From Spizellomyces punctatus DAOM BR117 (taxonomy: Eukaryota), in the NCBI GenBank assembly GCA_000182565.2, contig KQ257474.1: 39,180 nt of DNA, one strand, 5' to 3'. Shown here piece after piece: positions 9,601 to 37,828 of this stretch. A program made the position numbers and the translations under genes. Positions within the stretch are counted from its first letter, which is position 1. Each line of letters starts with the position of its first letter. The notes beneath the pieces were generated by a model. That model saw only the letters and a program-made list of their open reading frames with translations. It was not told where the DNA came from and did not search any database.

Positions 9601-11676
9601 ATGCTTCCCTTTGTGAAAAGTGCAAACGTTGAAATACATTTGGATAATGACCGCATAGAATTGGCAGACGGCTTGCCCAACGGTGCGCCCATTCCTGTCT
9701 TGTCTGGGAAAATTGTTTTGACATCTTCAAAGAATGTGGGATTGGTGGACTTGACGTTGAGCGTGCAAGGCGTTCTGGTAACGCGCATTTACCTTTTCCA
9801 TGTTTGTTTTACTCTGTTGTCTTGACAGTTTCTCACCTCCAGGACTGTGATGCAACTGTATTGAATCTGGTGAATGATGTGATTGGTACATCGCCGGTAC
9901 ATCCCGTAAGCCAGTCCATACTCTCATATGAAAAGACACTATGGCGAGCATCTCCCGGGAAGCCGGCTGTTGCTCCTACCGAAACAGTTTCTACGACCTC
10001 GTCGCCTGTCAAGTCTCGAGAGCTACCTGGGGGAGACACTGTACTTTTGGGTAGTCAGGCTCCCAACAAAGGGTCAAAGGCTTCAACATCCACCAATGGA
10101 GAACTCCCCGCCGGACGTCGCGAGTGGCCATTTTCTTTTAAATTACCTTCCACATTACTCCCCTCTGTTAACACTCGCTACGGACGGGTGTCGTATATTC
10201 TGAAAGCCAGACTAAAGCGAAAAGGCTTGGGACTGGATTTTAACGCCCGACGAACATTTACTGTCGTGCGCACAAGATCACGAGGTGCTGCATCTTTCGG
10301 TGACTTTCCCCTAGAGGACAAAACCGCCTTGTTCTCTGGCATGGTCACAATGCCAACGATAGCATTTTGCGATGATCCGACATTACGTGTCAAACTTAAC
10401 CTCAAAGTTTTGGAACCAAACAAGGTGCGGGATATTCGATCTGTAAAGTGCTATGTGAAAGAGGTTTCGGGCTTCTGGTGAGTTACCCTTAATCTGTTAA
10501 AGCCACATTTGGTCAGCCGTCTAAAGTATATCCGTCATTTTTTAGCCACGAGGGACAATTCTATGAGAATCAGACTCTTCTAGGCAGTCCATCAATATGG
10601 AAGCCTGCTGATGAACCACCGTCACCAGTAGATGATTCCGACGAGCATCCCTTTGCATTGGCGCGCACCATGGTGCAAGCAGGTCAGAAACAGAAACTAG
10701 TGGACACGTCTGCTGTCCCGTTCACCGTATCCACAGTGAGTATCAGGATGGGGTTCTCCCTAGTCGCCTTTTGTTTAATCTCGTTCGACTCTTGCAGGTG
10801 GGCGCGAATATGGATTTTGATACGCCTCATATGCGAATATACCATCTTCTGAAAGTAAAAGTGGATTACGAGCCTTGGGGAGCAGACCTTGGGAAATCCC
10901 CTCCCCTGTCACTGCCAGGCAATCCTCTATCAAGCTCCTCGTCGACCTCCCATCGTAAAGTAGAAACTTGTGTCATGCAAATACCACTCCCCATGTGGTG
11001 GGCCAGCTCTCGACGACCCCAGTCGTGGCTGGAGGGTCTGCCGACGCGGACTGCATCGGAAAAGCTTCTCGGCGTCTCAAAGTCACGTTTCCGTCTCCGC
11101 AATTCGTCAGAACCCGTCGAGCTCCTAACTCGTCGTGTGCATGAGCAATCGCCGAACCGTCCCATTTTTAGGAAGACGGCAGAATCATCACCAGCGCTAT
11201 ATAGCGGTAGGGAAAATACGTTGGAGCGATCAAACGCCGTCCGGGGCAAGAAAAATGACGTGAACAAGGCGTTACCATCTCGGCCAGATTCAATGTCCTC
11301 CGTCACTAGTGGGCAGTGGACATTGGATGAAACTGGTGTATATACTTTCAAGATGGAAGATGGTACTGCCACTTCTAGTGGCCTGGACACAGTTTTCGAA
11401 GAAGCAGACGATGAGAACGCGGACGAAAGGGAAAATAAACCCCCTCAAACTCAAGTCCCTGCTAGCGATAAGAAGCAAAGAAACCGGCAGTCGGCTGGAT
11501 TCTACACATCGATTTCCAGAGACGACGGAAACCCTGTATATAGTTATAATGAACTCGCTCTCAGCGAATCTGTGTTTACGTCTGGAAAGACTCTTACCGA
11601 CAGTCCCATCGCCGTATCTGTTCGCGAAAGTGGCAAATGGGAATTGGACGCGGAAGGTGTATATACATTTGTGTAA
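9601..11676 (+). CDS. Arrestin-domain (alpha-arrestin-like) protein with long disordered tail (spliced)
   Basis: VLSGKIVL...LPAGRREWPFSFKLPSTLLPSVNTRYGRVSYILKARL is the Arrestin_N pattern; the later RIYHLLKVKV is arrestin_C-like. GT-AG introns near 9790, 10465 and 10735. Confidence 0.75.
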
Positions 11677-11755: not shown

Positions 11756-12520
11756 TCATTCCCCCTTTGCTAATGATGGCGATATTCGGGTCCAAAGCTG
11801 AAATTCATAAGTAAATCCTTTTTCACTTTGCGTCCCACTGGGACATTTGCTCCCCGCTATCCTTCTCAGCTCTCCGGGACTGGCAATTTGAAATTTATCT
11901 TTTGGGATGGATGGAAAAAAGGCGTCACATTCAATCGCAGTTGGTGATTGGACAGATGTCAGAAAGATCCGTTGACAGAGCGGATGAGACAAGGCCGTAG
12001 CGTATAGCTGAGCACCGCCAATGATAAAGATGTTGGTATGTGCGATCGTTCCCACATTGGATAAAGCAGCATCAAGAGCGGAAAATGCATAGGTAGGCGC
12101 CTCCGGGGTACTTTGGCTGAGGAGGTCCAGACATCAAAATGAGCTTTTGAACCTAGACTACTCCAAATCCGGTCTTGCATAACCGAACCTATACCTGATC
12201 ACGTCTTTTCGCACGTCCTCTCTACTTGACAATACAATGTTGATCCGTCCCTTCAAGGGCCGGAATTTCGGTGGTATGGACTCCCACGTTTTGCGACCCA
12301 TTATTGTAACATTCATCGGTCTGTAGTTTTTATCTGATTCATCGTGCAATGGCTCGTCGTCGTCAGGAAAAGCCGAGTCCGGTCTGCGTCCTAAGAAGGT
12401 TGTCACCTGCTGGAAGAAGCGCATGTCGCCAGGCAAGCGCCAGGGCAAGCTACCGTTGACGCCAATCCCTCCATTTGCCAGCGCAGCAACGATGAGTGTT
12501 AGTGATGGTTTGCTCGCCAT
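11756..12520 (-). CDS. DFR1: Dihydrofolate reductase, monofunctional (2 exons)
   Basis: [74 protein letters not shown]. Confidence 0.96.
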
Positions 12521-12698
12521 TGCAAACTGCCTGACAATCTTCAGAACTTTGAGGGAGTGGGAAGCGAACTGGTTTAAACGTGATCGTGTCCACTTGTTCG
12601 GACATTCGGACATGAATGTAAAAGTCCTGAAACACCGACCAAGTACTCAGTTCAGCCCATCTAAACGTTTTATTATCACCAAGACTTTTTTTTGCAAT
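12521..12698. promoter_or_regulatory. Putative bidirectional promoter between DHFR and the R2-like gene (178 bp between start codons)
   Basis: Divergent ATGs at 12520 (-) and 12699 (+); tandem TTCGGACA x2 at ~12597-12612. Confidence 0.55.
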
Positions 12699-13994
12699 AT
12701 GTTGACAGCCGAGAGCTCAGAAAGCTTTAATAAGCTAAACTTGGACGAAAACTGGGACCAAACGGATACGTCGTCGGATCTACCCGAAGAACCTATTCTG
12801 GTCCCCAACCCAAAGCGTTTTGTTCTGTTTCCAGTCCAGTTTCATGAGGTTCGTCCCATATTTGCTTTTGTGCTCATCTCCTGCCTATCTAAATAACGCA
12901 ATCTGCAGGTGTGGCAGGCCTACAAAATTGCCGAGTCGAGGTTCTGGACTGCAGAGGATGTCGAGCTGTCAGAGGACGTACAGGCGTGGAGCAGTATGTC
13001 TGGAAAGGAGCGAGCATTCATTATGCATGCTGTCGGAATGATAGCCGGCAATGATGCGATGATTGGAGAGACTGTGGACTCAAAATTGAGCGACGACGTT
13101 CAGATACCGGAAGCCAGATGGTACCTTCAGAATCGGACCACATCGAATGACGCTTGTATATTGACCAGTTCATGCATAGCTTTTTCGGGTTTCAAATGAT
13201 GCAGAGGAACATTCATGCAGAATTGTTCACAGTTGTAATGGATATCTACTGCAAACCAGCGGAAAGAGACTATGTGTTTGACGGCCTGAAGCAGTGTAAG
13301 ACACGTCCTCGAGCAAAAGGATGAATGATAACTTCTTAAACATTCGCTTTTACTAGTACCCAGTATCAGCAAAAAGACAGCGTGGGTCCAGCGGCATATA
13401 ACGGATTCAAGCGAACATTTCTCTGTTCGCCTTGCTGCCCTGGCCATTTACAATGCAGTGTTTCAGTCTACCGTCATCGCCTGTCTTCTTTATTTGGCGG
13501 CACCGAACCGTCCTGCAGCTAGCTCAACCACGCGAACCGCGCCTTACCTTCCTGGTCTTATTCGCGGTCTAGCTCGGCTCAATCGGGATAATGAGACCTA
13601 TTATCGATTTTGCAACCTTCTCGGCAGCATTTTGGTGAACCGTCCTCCGACAAGCATTATCCATATGATGGCTAATGAAGCGGCAGAAATAGAGAAGCAA
13701 GTCTTTGCGGATATCCTGAGCATCTGTGGTGGCACTATCACTTTGCTTGGTCATCCCATCGAGGCGGCGCAAATTGAACAGCGGATACGATATGTGACGG
13801 ATAAAAGTTTGGTGGGCATGGGCTTTTCGAAACTCTATAAAGTAGAGAATCCGCTGCCGTGGATGGACGAGGTTTTGGCAACTGAAACCGGTGACGAAGC
13901 ACCAACGCAGAAACAGCCACCGTCAGGGAGCTCCAATGGAGGTGGGCAGCAAATGACTTCTGACGAAGGGTTTACAATCGATGCCGACTTTTGA
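12699..13994 (+). CDS. Ribonucleotide reductase small-subunit (R2) homologue with degenerate di-iron/radical site (4 exons)
   Basis: [43 protein letters not shown]...EARCFFGFQMMQRNIHAELF...KVENPLPWM...FTIDADF*. Three in-phase GT-AG introns and no premature stop in the spliced frame. Confidence 0.92.
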
Positions 13995-14166
13995 GGACAC
14001 GGGGTATTGTTTGTATGCAGATTATTTATTGGTGTTAAATAGCTACGTATGTCAATCGATGGCATGCTATATTACAGGGATTCTGTGGGCCACGTTTGAT
14101 GGAATGAGGTATTCGAGCTAATGCAGTACTGGCGAACATGTTGATCTATGTCTGCCTAGCTAGAAC

Positions 14167-15618
14167 TTATTCTTCATCCACAATGTACGTGTCGTATATC
14201 AGCCGCTGAACGAATGACGGCGGATGGGTTCCACTGCAGGCTGTGGTCAGAGAAACGTTTCGTAGAAATAGTTATGCAATTGTGTACACTTACACATTCG
14301 TGATGAAAAGTGAGACGTCTTCTGGTCCCACATAGTCAAAGTGGGGATTCACTATATCGACGCTATCAATGATATCGCCTAAACGGTACTTGAGTGAATC
14401 GCCATTAAATATCAGGGCGCGTTCAAGCAGAAGGGCATTACCCGCTTCAAAGCTGTATACTGCGTCTGGGTTGATGCACAGGTTGAAAATGTCCGTGTCA
14501 TAAGGATAGGATGGAGATAGCTTATGTAGGCCAGTGCATACTACAATCGGGGTTGAGTACTCCTTTGCGGCGGCAGCAACAAGCTGGCTGCCGCAAACGG
14601 CCACCACACCGCCATTTGCGGTAACTGGCAAGAGATTCAATGCCAAGTTTGAGAATTTCGAACGTTATAGACATACCTGCGTGTGCCCCCAAAATCACCT
14701 TGTTGACGCGCGACATGACTGCGAAGATTGCTGTATCTGTGATGACTGTCGTGTCAATGCCCGCAGATGACAAGGCGAGAGCCATTTCGTGTCCTTGATA
14801 GCTGAATGAGGATTGAGATACGTCGTCCGCGGTTCATCTTTCAACCCTTCCCAATCCAGAACTTACGACGGCGCTGTTTCTGCTACAATGACCTGGAACT
14901 CTCGCACCTGCGCTGCCACCTTCAGAAAGTGCTCGACCGTCTTTGACCTTCCCACAGTCAGAATGATCTCCCTGTTGTCAGCGTACTTGGTTTCAGTGAA
15001 AGGTTCATAAACTCTTGAAAACAGATCATACGGACTTGGAGTGTATATGCTCCCATGCTTGATTTGATATATTCGTTGACGTATTCTCGAGTTCGTCAAT
15101 CATCTCTTCTATGCTCTGTTTAACGTCGGCAACAAAGTTCCGTCGGCGTTCTCCAAAGTCATCAGACTCCGACGTGGTTTCGGCAGTTTCCGCAGCATCA
15201 CTGGCTTCAGTTTCGACGTTATGTTCTTCTTTAATCAAATGCAGTACTCGCTTGACCATATTGCCCACAGCAAGCTCTAAAGACAGAGATATATCAGCCA
15301 TTCTCGCCATATATCTCAGGATTTGGTAGTCGCTCGACAAACCTATGGGCTGGGCACCTTCTAACCGACTCCCTACTTCTTTTACCAAGGCCGATAGCTG
15401 TTCCACATCATTGCACCGACTTGCCGCCACCACATTTCGTAGCAAGCGGGACGTTGCTATCGCCACATTATAGGAACCTACAATCTGCCTATACGCCAGC
15501 AAAAGAGGTCATGAAGTTAAGGACGCTTGATTACTTGTTGGGCACTAACGTGCGGTCCTCACCTTCTTCGCAATTTCGCTACAAGCGAGTCGATCTGGTA
15601 ATTTATCTCCTTCAACAT
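14167..15618 (-). CDS. GCD7: Translation initiation factor eIF2B beta subunit (multi-exon)
   Basis: [97 protein letters not shown]. Confidence 0.93.
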
Positions 15619-21260: not shown

Positions 21261-22587
21261 TTATTTAGCCTCCTCCGGCTCATCAGCCTTTGCTTCCTCA
21301 GTCTTGTCACCTTCAGCTACGACTTAATGTTAGTAAAAAGCGTCCAAGAACACCGCAAGTCTCCAGCATTTTACTCACCGTCCTGAAGGTCTGAAGTCCA
21401 CAATGTCAAGTTGTCCCTCAGCAGTTGCATGATCAATGTGGAGTCCTTGTAGGACTCTTCGCTGAGCGTGTCCAACTCAGCAATTGCATCGTCGAAGGCC
21501 TGCTTGGCGAGGTGGCAGGCACGATCGGGCGAATTCAAGATCTCGTAGTAGAATACAGAGAAGTTGAGAGCGAGACCGAGACGAATAGGGTGCGTCGGGG
21601 CGAGTTCCGTCTGTGCAATATCCGTGGCAGCCTTGTACGCGTCGTGGGCGTGAGACGCAGCCTCCTTCCGCTTCTCGCCTGTGGCGAATTCGGCGAGGTA
21701 ACGGTGGTAATCTCCCTTCCTGAATAGTGAAAAATGATGTATGGTTAGCAAAATATTTTAGGTGTTTCACGAGGTATCGCACGGAATTCACGCACATCTT
21801 GTAGTAGAAGACCTTGGACTCTCCAGCTTCGGCAGCAGGGATCAAGTGCTCGTCGAGGACGTTGAGGATATCGGAGCAAACTTCGCTCAATTCAGTCTCG
21901 ATCTTGAGGCGGTAATCCTTGATCTTCTTAACCTGGCCCTCGTTACCCTTGCTTTCCTCCTTTTGTTCAATGGAGGAAACAATTCGCCACGACGCACGAC
22001 GAGCACCAATGACGTTCTTGTACGCAACGGACAACAAATTCCGTTCCTCAACAGTCAATTCCACACCAAGCTGTAAGTAAAATGATCAAACAAGACGTTA
22101 TTCGCAGCTCACGCATGAAAAATGGCTTTGCACGGCGTACCTTGGCAACTTCCTGTAATAATCATAGATGCAAACAAGAGCTTTATCCATTAGCACAGTC
22201 GACCGCAACGCGTGGTTACACGCCACGCCAGTGATACTTGCCTTCATGTAAGACACCATCTCTACATGATGAGAAATTCAAAAAAAAAAACCTTGTCAGC
22301 AAAAACAATACATGGGGAAACAACAGCAATTGCTTGCCGCAGTCGCGAGCGTACGACAAAACACGACGTTTGCGCACAGCATTGCGAAATCTCAAGTTCA
22401 TCAAGCTTACCATCGTATCTCTCTGCCTGCTCGGCGAGCTTAGCCATGTAGACTTGGTCCTCCCGTCCTCCTATGAACAGAAAGCACTCTAGTCAGCACC
22501 GACATGCAAACGTCACGGTCAAACACCTTTTTTTTTCGCATCAGACGCGTTCCCATCGTCGCGATGAACCGTACCTTTTTCGGCCAT
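21261..22587 (-). CDS. 14-3-3 protein (BMH/Rad24 type, 7 coding exons)
   Basis: [65 protein letters not shown]...[21 protein letters not shown]. Confidence 0.98.
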
Positions 22588-35423: not shown

Positions 35424-37828
35424 ATGGCCAAAAACCATAAGAAGAGCGCCTCTGGCGCTAAGCCGTCGGGCAATCCGTCCGTTCAGTTTGCCGACGAACC
35501 AGTGACCACCGACGCACGTTTTACCCGGGTCTATTCCGATCCTCGCTTCATAAAACCCCGCAAAGATGCCACTAAGGTTACAATTGATAGCCGATTCTCG
35601 AAGATGCTCAAGAGTGAGGAATTTGGAACTGGGATTGCGGCCCCGCGGGTTGACAAATACGGTAGGCCAACAAAGAAAACAGCCAGCAAGGATCTCGAGC
35701 GGTTCTACAAACTCGACGAAGAGGAGAAGGGGACAATTGATCAGGATAGCGAGAGTCTAAGTACCTCAGAAGTTGATGAATCTATGGAGGAAGAGTACAA
35801 TGCTGTTGTTGCTGGATATGATCTTGCGCGTGGCGAGGGATTGGTAGAGTCAGATTCAGATGATGATTCATATGAAGACATTGAAGCGGAGGATGGAGTT
35901 GAAGACGCTATTGAAGTGGGCCCTTACGCAGAGGAGAATGTTCCAACGGGCGACGAAACCTACAGGTTCGCCGTTGTAAACTTAGATTGGGACCACGTCA
36001 AGGCGAAAGACTTATTCAAAGTCTTTGATGCTTTCAAGCCGGCTCAAGGGGCCATAAAGTCCGTAAAAATCTACCCATCTGAGTTTGGCAAGGAAAGGCT
36101 GGAACGAGAAGCACGGGAAGGGCCTCCGGCCGACATTTTCGGATCTCCGGCAGGGGACGATGTACTGCAGCCATTGATTCGAGCGGAGGACGGAACTGAG
36201 GATTACGACAATATCAAGCTGCGCAAATACCAAATGGAAAGATTGAAGTACTATTATGCAGTGGTTGAATGTGACTCTGTGGAAACGGCACGAACTATTT
36301 ATAAAACTTGCGATGGCACCGAGTATGAGAAATCTGCGAATTTCTTTGACTTACGGTACATCCCGACTGGAATGGACTTTGACGATAGTCCAAGTGACGA
36401 GGCATATGACGTGCCAGCGGCATATCAACCAAAAGATTTCGTCACCCAAGCGCTGCAGCATTCCAATGTCAAACTTACTTGGGATGAAGATGACGACGAT
36501 CGTGTCCGAATCACGCGAAGGAAATTTACCAAAAACGACCTGCAAGATATGGATTTCAAAGCGTATCTGGCGTCCGCGTCTGAGGACGAGGAATCAGACG
36601 ACAACGCCCAATCCTTAAGGGCCAAGTATCAGGCTCTGCTGCAAGGGAATACAGATGGCAATCGTGATGCTTTTGGTAATAAGGAAACAGAAGAGGAATT
36701 GGAGATTACATTTGCGCCTGGGCTAAGTGAAAAGGCTGCAGCATTATTGGAGAAAAAGAAGGAGAGACAGGTAAGTTATAACCAGACACTAGGTATTTCG
36801 CTGATTGAAGCCCATCCTGATACATCGTTGCGCCAGGCGCAGAAGGACGAGACGGTATTTGAACAATACTTGCGTAAGCGAAAAGAGAAGCGGAAGGCCA
36901 AGAAAACTGCCCAAAAGGAGATGGATGATGGTAATTTAAGTAATTGATCTGCGTACATATAATAGTTCTGGCACTGACAACAGCACGGCTACCGCTACAG
37001 AGCCATTAGTGTCTTCGGGTGACGAAGAAATAGACATGGATGATCCATTCTTCAGTGAGGAGTTTGGTTCTGAATATCAACCGAAAGTGTCGGGTGCGTT
37101 CGGCGCTTGGTGTGATGATGCCACTTCCGTTAGCTTACGCTGTAATGTTCCAGACACAAGCGAAAGAAAGCAGACGAAGAAAGCACTCAAAAGCAGAAAA
37201 CCTAGTGCGGATGACGTGAAATCCAAGGCGGAGCTTGAATTGCTAATGTTGCAAGATGAGGGCGGACCTAACTCTCGACATTTTGACATGAAAGAAGTGA
37301 TAAAGGAAGAAAAAGGCCAAAAGAAGAAGAAGGGCCGTAAACCGAAGAAGGAACGTCGGGAGGGTGGTGTGCAGGATGGGTTTGAGATTGATATCAAGGA
37401 TCCCCGATTTGCGAGCGTGCTAGAAAGTCATCATTTTGCCATTGATCCCACTAATCCTCAGTAAGTTTTCTGTTAGCAATTCCGAATGCAGTGCTTAACC
37501 CGCCCAATTCTAGATTCAAGAAAACACAAGCCATGGAGAAAGTCTTGCAGGAGCGCCGCAAGCGCCGTGACATGAAGGAGGACGGTCAGACTATACCACA
37601 AAATAGAGCCCAGAAAGCGAAAAATGTATCTGAAGAGCAGACACGCCCGGGTTCATCAAATCTGTCGCTATTGGTGGAGTCGGTGAGTTTCCCGCTCGTC
37701 GTCATGGCTGAAGTTTTGGTTCTGCTTCATCTAATGTATGGTGATAGGTGAAACGAAAAAGCGCAGCTGCGATAGGTGATCGCAGTCTCAAAGGCAAAAG
37801 ACAGAAAGTAGCGCCAGTATCAAGTTGA
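35424..37828 (+). CDS. ESF1: Pre-rRNA processing protein Esf1 (NUC153; spliced)
   Basis: DARF..VYSDPRF; VDKYGR; RFAVVNLDWDHVKAKDLF; VKIYPSEFGKERL; LRKYQMERLKYYYAVVEC; DPRFASVLESHHFAIDPTNP. Confidence 0.96.

Follow-up and report, generated by a model that had tools for sequence, protein, structure and literature searches.

We analyzed a 39,180-nucleotide stretch of the genome of Spizellomyces punctatus DAOM BR117 (assembly GCA_000182565.2, contig KQ257474.1; this whole stretch is called the window below), a chytrid of the order Spizellomycetales according to a lineage look-up. On its plus strand, at 12699-13994, lies SPPG_08741, a gene deposited at NCBI as an "uncharacterized protein", whose product resembles the small subunit (R2, or β) of class Ia ribonucleotide reductase (RNR). 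It is predicted to be a catalytically dead R2 paralogue, kept across many chytrid lineages beside the canonical β.

The four exons of the coding sequence join into one open frame of 1116 nt and 371 amino acids, and the spliced product is letter-identical to the deposited protein (P0237 in our tables). PF00268 spans the whole protein (1.8e-56, 192.1 bits against a cut-off of 33.6, profile positions 1-281 of 281), exons 2, 3, and 4 each match it separately, and no other Pfam family matches the protein; a phmmer comparison of an SPPG_08741-type protein with human and mouse R2 gives 1e-60. The splice model is based on identity to the deposited protein and on homology across the junctions. Since homology with canonical R2 is continuous over all three junctions, the model is supported independently of the deposited annotation. 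The features of the gene are as follows (residues without further mark are numbered in SPPG_08741; ligands and radical site are numbered as in mouse R2).

12699-12848, + strand: exon 1, amino acids 1-50; start codon, disordered N-terminus, and beginning of the conserved arm
12741-12758, + strand: family-specific motif LDENWD (amino acids 15-20), in exon 1
12849-12908, + strand: intron 1, 60 nt, GT..AG; junction FHE/VWQ
12909-13120, + strand: exon 2, amino acids 51-120 plus 2 nt; FWTAE, W77, and helix B with D99; PF00268 at 4.6e-16, profile 12-82
12987-12989, + strand: W77 (mouse W103), in exon 2
13053-13055, + strand: D99 (mouse D139), the sole carboxylate ligand retained; helix B, in exon 2
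13121-13179, + strand: intron 2, 59 nt, GT..AG, interrupting codon 121 (Cys); junction EAR/CFF, corresponding to canonical EARCFY
13180-13295, + strand: exon 3, amino acids 121-159 plus 1 nt; helix C, CFFGFQMMQRNIHAELF, with R130, H133, E135 (kept), and F137
13205-13207, + strand: Arg (R130) in place of ligand E170
13214-13216, + strand: H133 (mouse H173), kept, in exon 3
13226-13228, + strand: Phe (F137) in place of the radical Tyr, Y177
13296-13356, + strand: intron 3, 61 nt, GT..AG, interrupting codon 160 (Leu); junction LKQ/LPS
13357-13994, + strand: exon 4, amino acids 160-371 plus stop; PF00268 at 2.2e-16, profile 123-281
Within exon 4, + strand: family signature TAWVQRHITDSSEHFSVR, a conserved family element that canonical R2 does not have
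13452-13454, + strand: Asn (N192) in place of ligand E233
13512-13535, + strand: low-confidence insert (amino acids 212-219), in exon 4
13587-13589, + strand: D237 (mouse D266), kept, in exon 4
13590-13592, + strand: Asn (N238) in place of ligand E267
13599-13601, + strand: Tyr (Y241) in place of ligand H270
13971-13991, + strand: heptapeptide FTIDADF (amino acids 365-371), the R1-docking tail of eukaryotic R2
13992-13994, + strand: stop codon TGA, in exon 4

Catalytic residues and docking tail

Substitutions were read from a HMMER alignment of P0001, a 91.6% identical orthologue, with mouse R2 (1h0n_A, also 1w68), together with a site table. Four of the six metal ligands are lost (E170, E233, E267, and H270) and two are kept (D139 and H173, here D99 and H133), and the radical Tyr is replaced by Phe. 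Asp266 (D237), which is conserved in R2 and is no ligand, is retained. The segment GKTNFFEKRVxEY, which carries the relay Tyr, has been swapped for a Tyr-free linker, with no Tyr at all in the final 45 residues. Both RFVLFP and FWTAE are present, and the C-terminus reads FTIDADF, compared with FTLDADF in the canonical R2 of the same species. Because the complete D-E-H-Y-E-D-E-H set is found in 43 of 43 canonical R2 rows of the same site table, this pattern of losses is not noise.

Measured against an active class Ia R2, the protein thus falls short in its ligands, its radical Tyr, and its relay Tyr, and has, by sequence, the docking heptapeptide. With these residues, SPPG_08741 is predicted to be unable to build a di-iron site or to hold a tyrosyl radical. 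A preliminary description of this DNA had proposed an open spliced frame of R2 type, each of the substitutions listed above (with the Arg codon placed at 13205 and the Phe codon at 13226), the exchange of the relay segment for a Tyr-free linker, and the conservation of FTIDADF, RFVLFP, and FWTAE; the 371-residue frame, the mouse R2 alignment, and the site table confirmed all of these. Its overall proposal, an intact but catalytically dead R2 paralogue with an R1-docking tail in an early-diverging fungus, is likewise supported.

Predicted structure

An AlphaFold2 model was built on a 25-row alignment of the family described below. It reached a mean predicted local distance difference test (pLDDT) of 81.5 and a predicted template-modeling score of 0.80, with low confidence limited to residues 1-24 (pLDDT < 50), the insert at 212-219, and the tail region at 341-371. 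In Foldseek searches with this model, eukaryotic R2 structures took the top ranks: yeast Rnr2 (1jk0_A) was matched with an E-value of 7e-17 and a template-modeling (TM) score of 0.78, and human R2 and p53R2 with TM scores by target of 0.89-0.92 at root-mean-square deviations of 2.0-2.6 Å. Rnr4 followed with an E-value of 1.7e-12, and bacterial class Ic and Ib proteins ranked far below (Chlamydia NrdB, 1.9e-9, 18% identity). The protein is accordingly modeled as having the eight-helix, ferritin-like R2 fold.

A family of degenerate R2 proteins in chytrids

A word-based search with P0001 returned 17 proteins with like losses among 60 tabulated rows, and a profile made from 16 of these, scored against 1.84 billion representatives, brought further members. 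Two profiles, one for the family (25 rows) and one for canonical R2 (29 rows), were then compared on 393 collected R2 proteins. Fifty-five of the 393 favored the family profile, each by >75 bits, and none fell within 40 bits of the boundary; 25 of the 55 had built the family profile, and the other 30 are independent of it.

Family rows with source names represent 30 taxa, all bearing chytrid names: Spizellomyces (2), Gaertneriomyces (2), Rhizophlyctis, Borealophlyctis, Blyttiomyces (2), Synchytrium (2, among them Synchytrium endobioticum), Phlyctochytrium, Entophlyctis (3), Homolaphlyctis, Batrachochytrium dendrobatidis, Boothiomyces, Terramyces, Globomyces, Gorgonomyces, Zopfochytrium, Chytridiales sp., Chytriomyces, Chytridium, Rhizoclosmatium (2), Polychytrium, Cladochytrium, Clydaea, and Lobulomyces. 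Lineage look-ups of three member taxa all returned Chytridiomycetes, and the remaining ones we take to be chytrids as well; 16 of the 42 non-redundant family rows come without the name of a source organism. No family member was seen among the named rows of Blastocladiomycota, Mucoromycota, Zoopagomycota, or other Dikarya, although the canonical search listed these groups. A metagenome scan kept 80 loci, all 30-36% identical, i.e., at the level of canonical R2, and no closer relative was found among these loci, which were not classified by profile; the ESM Atlas gave generic R2 clusters only.

Sites were tallied after 13 near-duplicates had been dropped, which left 42 rows, one for each species or 90% cluster. 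At the ligand position E170, Arg and Lys each occur in 15 of 40 rows and Glu in 2, a recurrence that may compensate for charge where the metal site is empty. Position Y177 holds Tyr in a single row of 40 and Phe in 20, followed by L, I, C, V, A, W, S, and Q. Glu remains at E233 in 1 of 39 rows and at E267 in 0 of 38, with 13 different residues at each of the two positions, and H270 has become Tyr in 32 of 38 rows and Phe in 3, with His in 1. Asp139 is kept in 21 of 35. Set against these are three positions with next to no variation: His173 (39 of 40), Glu175 (40 of 40), and Asp266 (38 of 38). Among rows covering all six ligand sites, 0, 1, 2, and 3 ligands are retained in 1, 10, 18, and 2 rows, respectively. 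The relay-Tyr motif occurs in none of the 42 rows. A tail of the form F-x-x-[DESN]-x-[DE]-F ends 31 of them. Of the 11 rows without it, 5 are short fragments, 2 are models labeled "partial", 3 are over-long models whose ends are aberrant, and 1 has a variant tail ending in LMDDF. Free variation where the ligands and the radical once sat speaks against a new active site.

At the other end of the protein, 17 of the 30 rows that have an N-terminus start with ML[TS]A, and an acidic Trp motif, [DE][DN]W[DE] (LDENWD in SPPG_08741), is found in 11 of 30 family rows vs 0 of 27 canonical ones; it may be a docking motif.

Two further observations concern membership. P0323, a protein with long poly-Gln from an unnamed source, is a family member by score (240 vs 128 bits) and keeps the radical-site Tyr yet lacks five ligands, the sole row of this kind. 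Rhizophlyctis rosea has two dead-type records (P0004 and P0006), one of them partial.

Conservation and selection

In the 30 named taxa, which belong to several orders, the frame is open and can be aligned over its entire length. Within Spizellomyces, 26 of 31 substitutions are conservative (BLOSUM62 ≥0), differences are enriched 2.6-fold in the three low-confidence segments of the model (11 of 63 vs 23 of 308 positions, p 0.027), and the seven residues of the tail show no difference between the two species. In 50 columns, the family conserves the very residue that canonical R2 has. These cluster in amino acids 31-73 (EEPxLxxNxxRFVLFP...FWxAEE), in amino acids 112-135 (IQxPEARCFxGFQxMxxNIHxE), and in the tail. 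Another 102 columns that are conserved in canonical R2 are relaxed in the family, and these take up the larger part of helices B, E, and F near the metal site. Conserved elements specific to the family are the TAWVQRHITDSSEHFSVR region, a GG at amino acids 284-285, and the N-terminal W motif.

Taken together, these patterns indicate long-term purifying selection on the N-terminal arm, helix C, Asp266, and the docking heptapeptide. The preliminary description had held that an absence of orthologues would point to a decaying duplicate, and the 30 named taxa with shared losses remove that objection. A comparison of the tails of dead and canonical copies in 14 taxa revealed no pattern of co-variation.

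Canonical R2 and other R2 copies

A protein search for a canonical R2 elsewhere in the genome, the check proposed at the outset, found P0129 in the same species. This 351-residue protein is encoded on another contig, scores 399 bits against PF00268, and is complete in its catalytic residues and relay motif, with FTLDADF as its tail. Canonical R2 is also listed for at least 13 further member taxa among the 120 rows shown.

Additional R2 copies of other kinds were also seen. Two canonical copies each were found in Gaertneriomyces semiglobifer and Rhizophlyctis rosea (P0148/P0165 and P0122/P0128), with 92% identity between the copies in Gaertneriomyces. Ten proteins among the best 150 profile hits (P0272, P0278, P0300, P0303, P0322, P0327, P0348, P0350, P0374, and P0381; P0278 is a Joint Genome Institute (JGI) metagenome record) are R2-like with one to several ligands lost and an acidic tail ending in DF, and in each the canonical profile outscores the chytrid family profile. 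To judge by such sequences, altered or dead R2 paralogues with retained tails may have arisen many times.

Gene neighborhood and RNA reads

The surroundings of SPPG_08741 contain the following genes and matches.

9651-10478, + strand: Arrestin_N match (Pfam)
12158-12646, - strand: DHFR gene (Pfam DHFR_1, 7.3e-18; ATG at 12520-12518), divergent from and head to head with SPPG_08741
12521-12698, no strand: spacer of 178 bp between the two start codons; context, outside the protein
13771-14300 and 14290-14664, - strand: IF-2B family gene (Pfam, 1.8e-15), downstream of and convergent on SPPG_08741
18784-20406, + strand: Myb-like DNA-binding domain (Pfam)
21477-22082, - strand: 14-3-3 (Pfam)
35424-36944, + strand: ESF1 RNA-recognition motif (RRM) domain (Pfam)

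Eight further long frames in the window gave no Pfam hit at 1e-4, and the genes matched farther out are ordinary. Guanine-plus-cytosine content is even across 9-18 kb (0.44-0.52). A recent foreign insertion is disfavored by the three spliceosomal introns and by this ordinary gene setting and even composition; an ancient viral origin of the duplicate is conceivable, given the rows compared.

To judge by its position, the 178-bp spacer is likely a shared bidirectional promoter of SPPG_08741 and DHFR, and the head-to-head placement would fit co-expression with DNA-precursor genes. Neither ACGCGT nor an E2F-like site was spotted in the spacer, which was inspected by eye and without a motif scan.

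RNA reads from run X7 reach a depth of 1.8-13.6 in the final 220 nt of the coding sequence and of 12-65 across the 3' flank, where the signal is strand-ambiguous because the convergent gene overlaps the flank. In the same run, reads stack on both strands over 14002-14300, and five of them show a loose poly-T end immediately ahead of 14007, at 13 nt beyond the SPPG_08741 stop codon. These ends look like the poly(A) site of a minus-strand transcript, and the 3' ends of SPPG_08741 and the IF-2B family gene probably overlap. No splice joints were reported in X7, of which about 6% of the reads, 60 nt long, were covered. Runs X1-X3 consist of contigs that follow the genome straight through the introns and are thus uninformative on splicing.

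Proposed role

By analogy with Rnr4 of budding yeast and PfR4 of Plasmodium, SPPG_08741 may be a non-catalytic β' subunit of RNR, a reading to which we give an even chance. We place it first because both precedents are such subunits. The presence of a canonical partner and the overlap of relaxed columns with an Rnr4 orthologue (71 vs 56.2 expected, p 7e-6) count in its favor, and the head-to-head position with DHFR would fit it. That the dead protein still belongs to RNR is argued by its canonical-identity elements, all of them R2-typical, and by a tail that follows the R1-docking pattern. Specifically, the dead subunit would pair with canonical β in a β/β' heterodimer, its tail would dock this heterodimer on α (R1), and it would stabilize β or aid its assembly, as Rnr4 and PfR4 do. 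Basic residue 130 would probably neutralize acidic residues left behind where the metal site is empty.

Binding to β or α would be the central step of a β' role, with the conserved segments 31-73 and 112-135 as a putative dimer interface. Several observations weigh against this role. Canonical chytrid β is as conserved as in fungi without β', so that a need for a helper is not evident. S. cerevisiae Rnr4 keeps the relay motif FFEKKVSDY, whereas the whole relay segment is gone from the window protein, and position W103 is Phe in 15 of 35 family rows and Trp in 16. The dead copy and the canonical β of the same species share 38.5% identity; within the genus (S. punctatus vs S. "palustris"), identity is 91.6% for the dead copy and 98.6% for the canonical one, and between orders it is 41-53% vs 77-87%. 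Judged from these alignments, the dead family evolves several-fold faster than canonical R2 and is far more degenerate than Rnr4, and it is clearly constrained all the same. Finally, X7 depth is at most 0.66 over most of the coding sequence, in the roughly 6% of 60-nt reads covered.

The alternative with most in its favor is a negative regulator: by itself or as a homodimer, the dead subunit would fill the β-docking cleft of α via FTIDADF and lower RNR activity, for example in stages without DNA replication. We regard such an R1 decoy as possible but unlikely. The R2 C-terminus binds a hydrophobic R1 cleft, and blocking this cleft has been proposed to prevent holoenzyme formation (PMC3824934). 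The tail is the best-kept part of the family outside the N-terminal arm and helix C, and the core evolves fast. All elements of radical delivery are gone (ligands, Y177, relay Tyr, and often W103), a loss tolerable in a pure blocker, and the family-specific [DE][DN]W[DE] motif, with its 11 of 30 vs 0 of 27 distribution, could recruit a regulator. However, the tail alone would suffice for a decoy, yet the folded core, arm, and helix C keep canonical residues. The head-to-head placement with DHFR would moreover suggest co-expression with synthesis genes, and both known dead R2 paralogues are positive subunits (PMC3824934).

A more specific version, slightly less probable again, is a folded decoy, possibly a homodimer, that would act as an encoded R2 C-terminal peptide inhibitor, capping the clefts of α, with the N-terminal Trp motif serving its recruitment or release. 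If true, this would tie RNR to the life cycle, i.e., to the quiescent zoospore vs the sporangium with its rapid nuclear cycles, and would amount to a type of RNR inhibition at the protein level that has been described in no eukaryote.

Origin and relation to Rnr4

A further alternative concerns origin and not mechanism: the chytrid family and yeast Rnr4 could be orthologues from one ancient fungal duplication, with β' surviving only in chytrids and budding yeasts. We consider this improbable. In a quick tree of 54 rows without Rnr4, the family formed one clade (Shimodaira-Hasegawa-like approximate likelihood ratio test, 100) whose stem measured 6.9 changes per site and which lay among fungal R2 without a resolved position and not near Dikarya. 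A careful maximum-likelihood tree was then built on 43 rows, namely 15 family, 24 canonical, and 2 bacterial rows, the Rnr4-like P0272, and, as Rnr4 representative, P0270, a Kazachstania barnettii Rnr4 orthologue (443 bits to 1jk0_B vs 370 to Rnr2). It omits the longest-branched, partial, and near-duplicate rows (P0001, P0005, P0006, P0009, P0010, P0015, P0022, and P0024) and all fragments.

The family was again one clade (100/100), and it joined P0270 and P0272 at 86/96 inside Dikarya, as orthology would have it. This join is flagged, however, as long branches meeting. Constraining Rnr4 to group with Dikarya and the family to fall outside gave a tree 0.44 log-likelihood units better (approximately unbiased (AU) test, p 0.498), and constraining the family to group with chytrid canonical R2 cost 5.67 units (p 0.335). 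The trees cannot place the family.

Outside the trees, orthology is favored by the His270 to Tyr change in both proteins and by an overlap of relaxed columns (71 vs 56.2 expected, of 199, p 7e-6). We take the overlap to mean that the same constraints were lifted as function was lost in a similar way, and not that the two descend from one duplication. Only four derived residues are shared by the family and Rnr4 (D to E, M to L, S to A, and H270 to Y), three of them conservative. The ligand losses differ, Rnr4 keeping E170, Y177, E233, and the relay motif and losing H173, and many further losses would be needed, with no members among the named Blastocladiomycota, Mucoromycota, Zoopagomycota, and other Dikarya rows. 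To our knowledge, Rnr4 is confined to budding yeasts. Given this taxonomic gap between chytrids and budding yeasts and the few shared residues, the sequences favor an origin independent of Rnr4. The independently evolved Rnr4 analogue put forward in the preliminary description is thus a candidate reading: the AU test rejects neither a separate Rnr4 nor an origin inside chytrid R2.

P0270 itself is named in its source as similar to RNR2 despite its higher Rnr4 score. It goes beyond S. cerevisiae Rnr4 in having Glu for Asp139 and Phe for the relay Tyr of FFEKKVSDY (FFEKQVSDF), which suggests that the relay Tyr is dispensable in a β'.

Remaining explanations

The protein might also have left RNR altogether, using a ferritin-like fold, N-terminal motif, and acidic tail in an unrelated binding or scaffolding role. 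The core does diverge very fast, and canonical R2 has no counterpart of the TAWVQRHITDSSEHFSVR region, the GG at 284-285, or the N-terminal W motif. The elements of canonical identity are nonetheless all R2-typical, a tail of the form F-[TS]-x-[DE]-x-[DE]-F is present in nearly all complete rows, and no other Pfam family matches, so that this explanation appears a little less probable still than Rnr4 orthology.

Metal-free and hetero-metal R2 classes exist (class Ie and class Ic), and S. punctatus keeps D139, H173, and D266, which would be a starting point for an active radical-generating subunit with a new, metal-poor chemistry. We consider this very unlikely: 39 of 40 rows have no oxidizable Tyr at the radical position and the residue there varies freely, the E233 and E267 positions each hold 13 residues where an active site would be conserved, the relay Tyr is gone, and a canonical β is present. 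A decaying duplicate, i.e., an unprocessed pseudogene open by chance, could account for the lost catalytic residues, the fast evolution, and the low X7 depth over the coding sequence (one run), but is scarcely credible: the frames of 30 named taxa from several orders are open, align throughout, and fall into one clade, key residues and the tail are conserved across the family, and substitutions within the genus are conservative.

Implications

Dead R2 partners have been studied in two lineages only, budding yeast and Plasmodium, and why RNR needs one is still unclear. The chytrid family would be a third lineage, one of long standing and broad distribution in which degeneration has gone much further. 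The parts of R2 that would serve a non-catalytic role are marked by what this family conserves: the N-terminal arm, helix C (His173 and Glu175 included), Asp266, and the tail. S. punctatus is a culturable and genetically tractable saprotroph, and could thus be a model for a dead R2. The family occurs in Batrachochytrium dendrobatidis and Synchytrium endobioticum and not in their hosts, i.e., it would be a lineage-specific RNR component, as argued for PfR4. Many members are named "ribonucleoside-diphosphate reductase subunit M2", and metabolic reconstructions should not treat them as active R2.

Comparison with known systems

The bacterial class Ie NrdF is metal-free, with carboxylate ligands replaced, including by a basic residue, and needs NrdI and a Tyr that is converted to a dihydroxyphenylalanine (DOPA) radical. 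The window protein resembles it in its replaced carboxylates, including one by a basic residue, but has Phe (F137) for the needed Tyr, at a position variable across the family, so a class Ie identity is ruled out. Like p53R2 or a second canonical R2, SPPG_08741 is a second R2 gene in its genome; those copies, however, are catalytically complete and active. Class Ic R2 (Chlamydia trachomatis NrdB, Mn/Fe) shares the Phe at the radical-Tyr position but is active and has six ligands, with Glu replacing the Asp (PMC3824934), whereas the window protein has lost four; class Ic identity is therefore also ruled out, and the earlier view that the protein fits neither class holds by its residues. R2lox, which needs six ligands plus R2lox-specific residues (PMC3824934), is excluded by the ligand losses. 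Class II RNR occurs in some early fungi and class I in all (PMC8085122), which has no bearing on the dead R2.

The closest parallels are the two known dead R2 partners. The R2_e2 clade, to which PfR4 belongs, is confined to Apicomplexa, and PfR4 has been reported to bind PfR2 and R1 in P. falciparum, in an α2-β-β' complex (Munro et al. 2013, PMC3824934). R2_e2 resembles the chytrid family in being a second R2 that is long-branched and specific to its lineage, with a frame open in every taxon, in having F, I, or V for the radical Tyr in most members, in lacking the C-terminal relay Tyr in all, and in conserving its final 7-8 residues (PMC3824934). It differs in keeping all six ligands, compared with 0-3 in the chytrid family, and in being sister to all eukaryotic R2, while the chytrid family falls among fungal R2, as seen in separate trees (PMC3824934 for R2_e2). 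An R2_e2-type identity accordingly fails on the six ligands, and matches in the lost radical Tyr, the lost relay Tyr, and the kept tail.

S. cerevisiae Rnr4 is likewise an R2 paralogue without a working di-iron site beside a canonical R2, with the same fold, an acidic tail ending in DF, the His270 to Tyr change, and overlapping relaxed columns; it is described as lacking key ligands and being non-catalytic, as part of α2-β-β', and as possibly a chaperone (PMC3824934). It loses three ligands only (H173Y, E267R, and H270Y) and keeps D139, E170, Y177, and E233, of which the window protein loses the last three while keeping H173. In overall score the window protein stands further from Rnr4 (152 bits) than from Rnr2 (191) or mouse R2 (208). 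No description of a chytrid dead R2 was found in the literature, in which subscription journals were thinly covered. To the dead R2 partners already known in yeast (Rnr4) and Apicomplexa (PfR4/R2_e2), the present analysis thus adds a more extreme chytrid family, apparently undescribed as far as we found.

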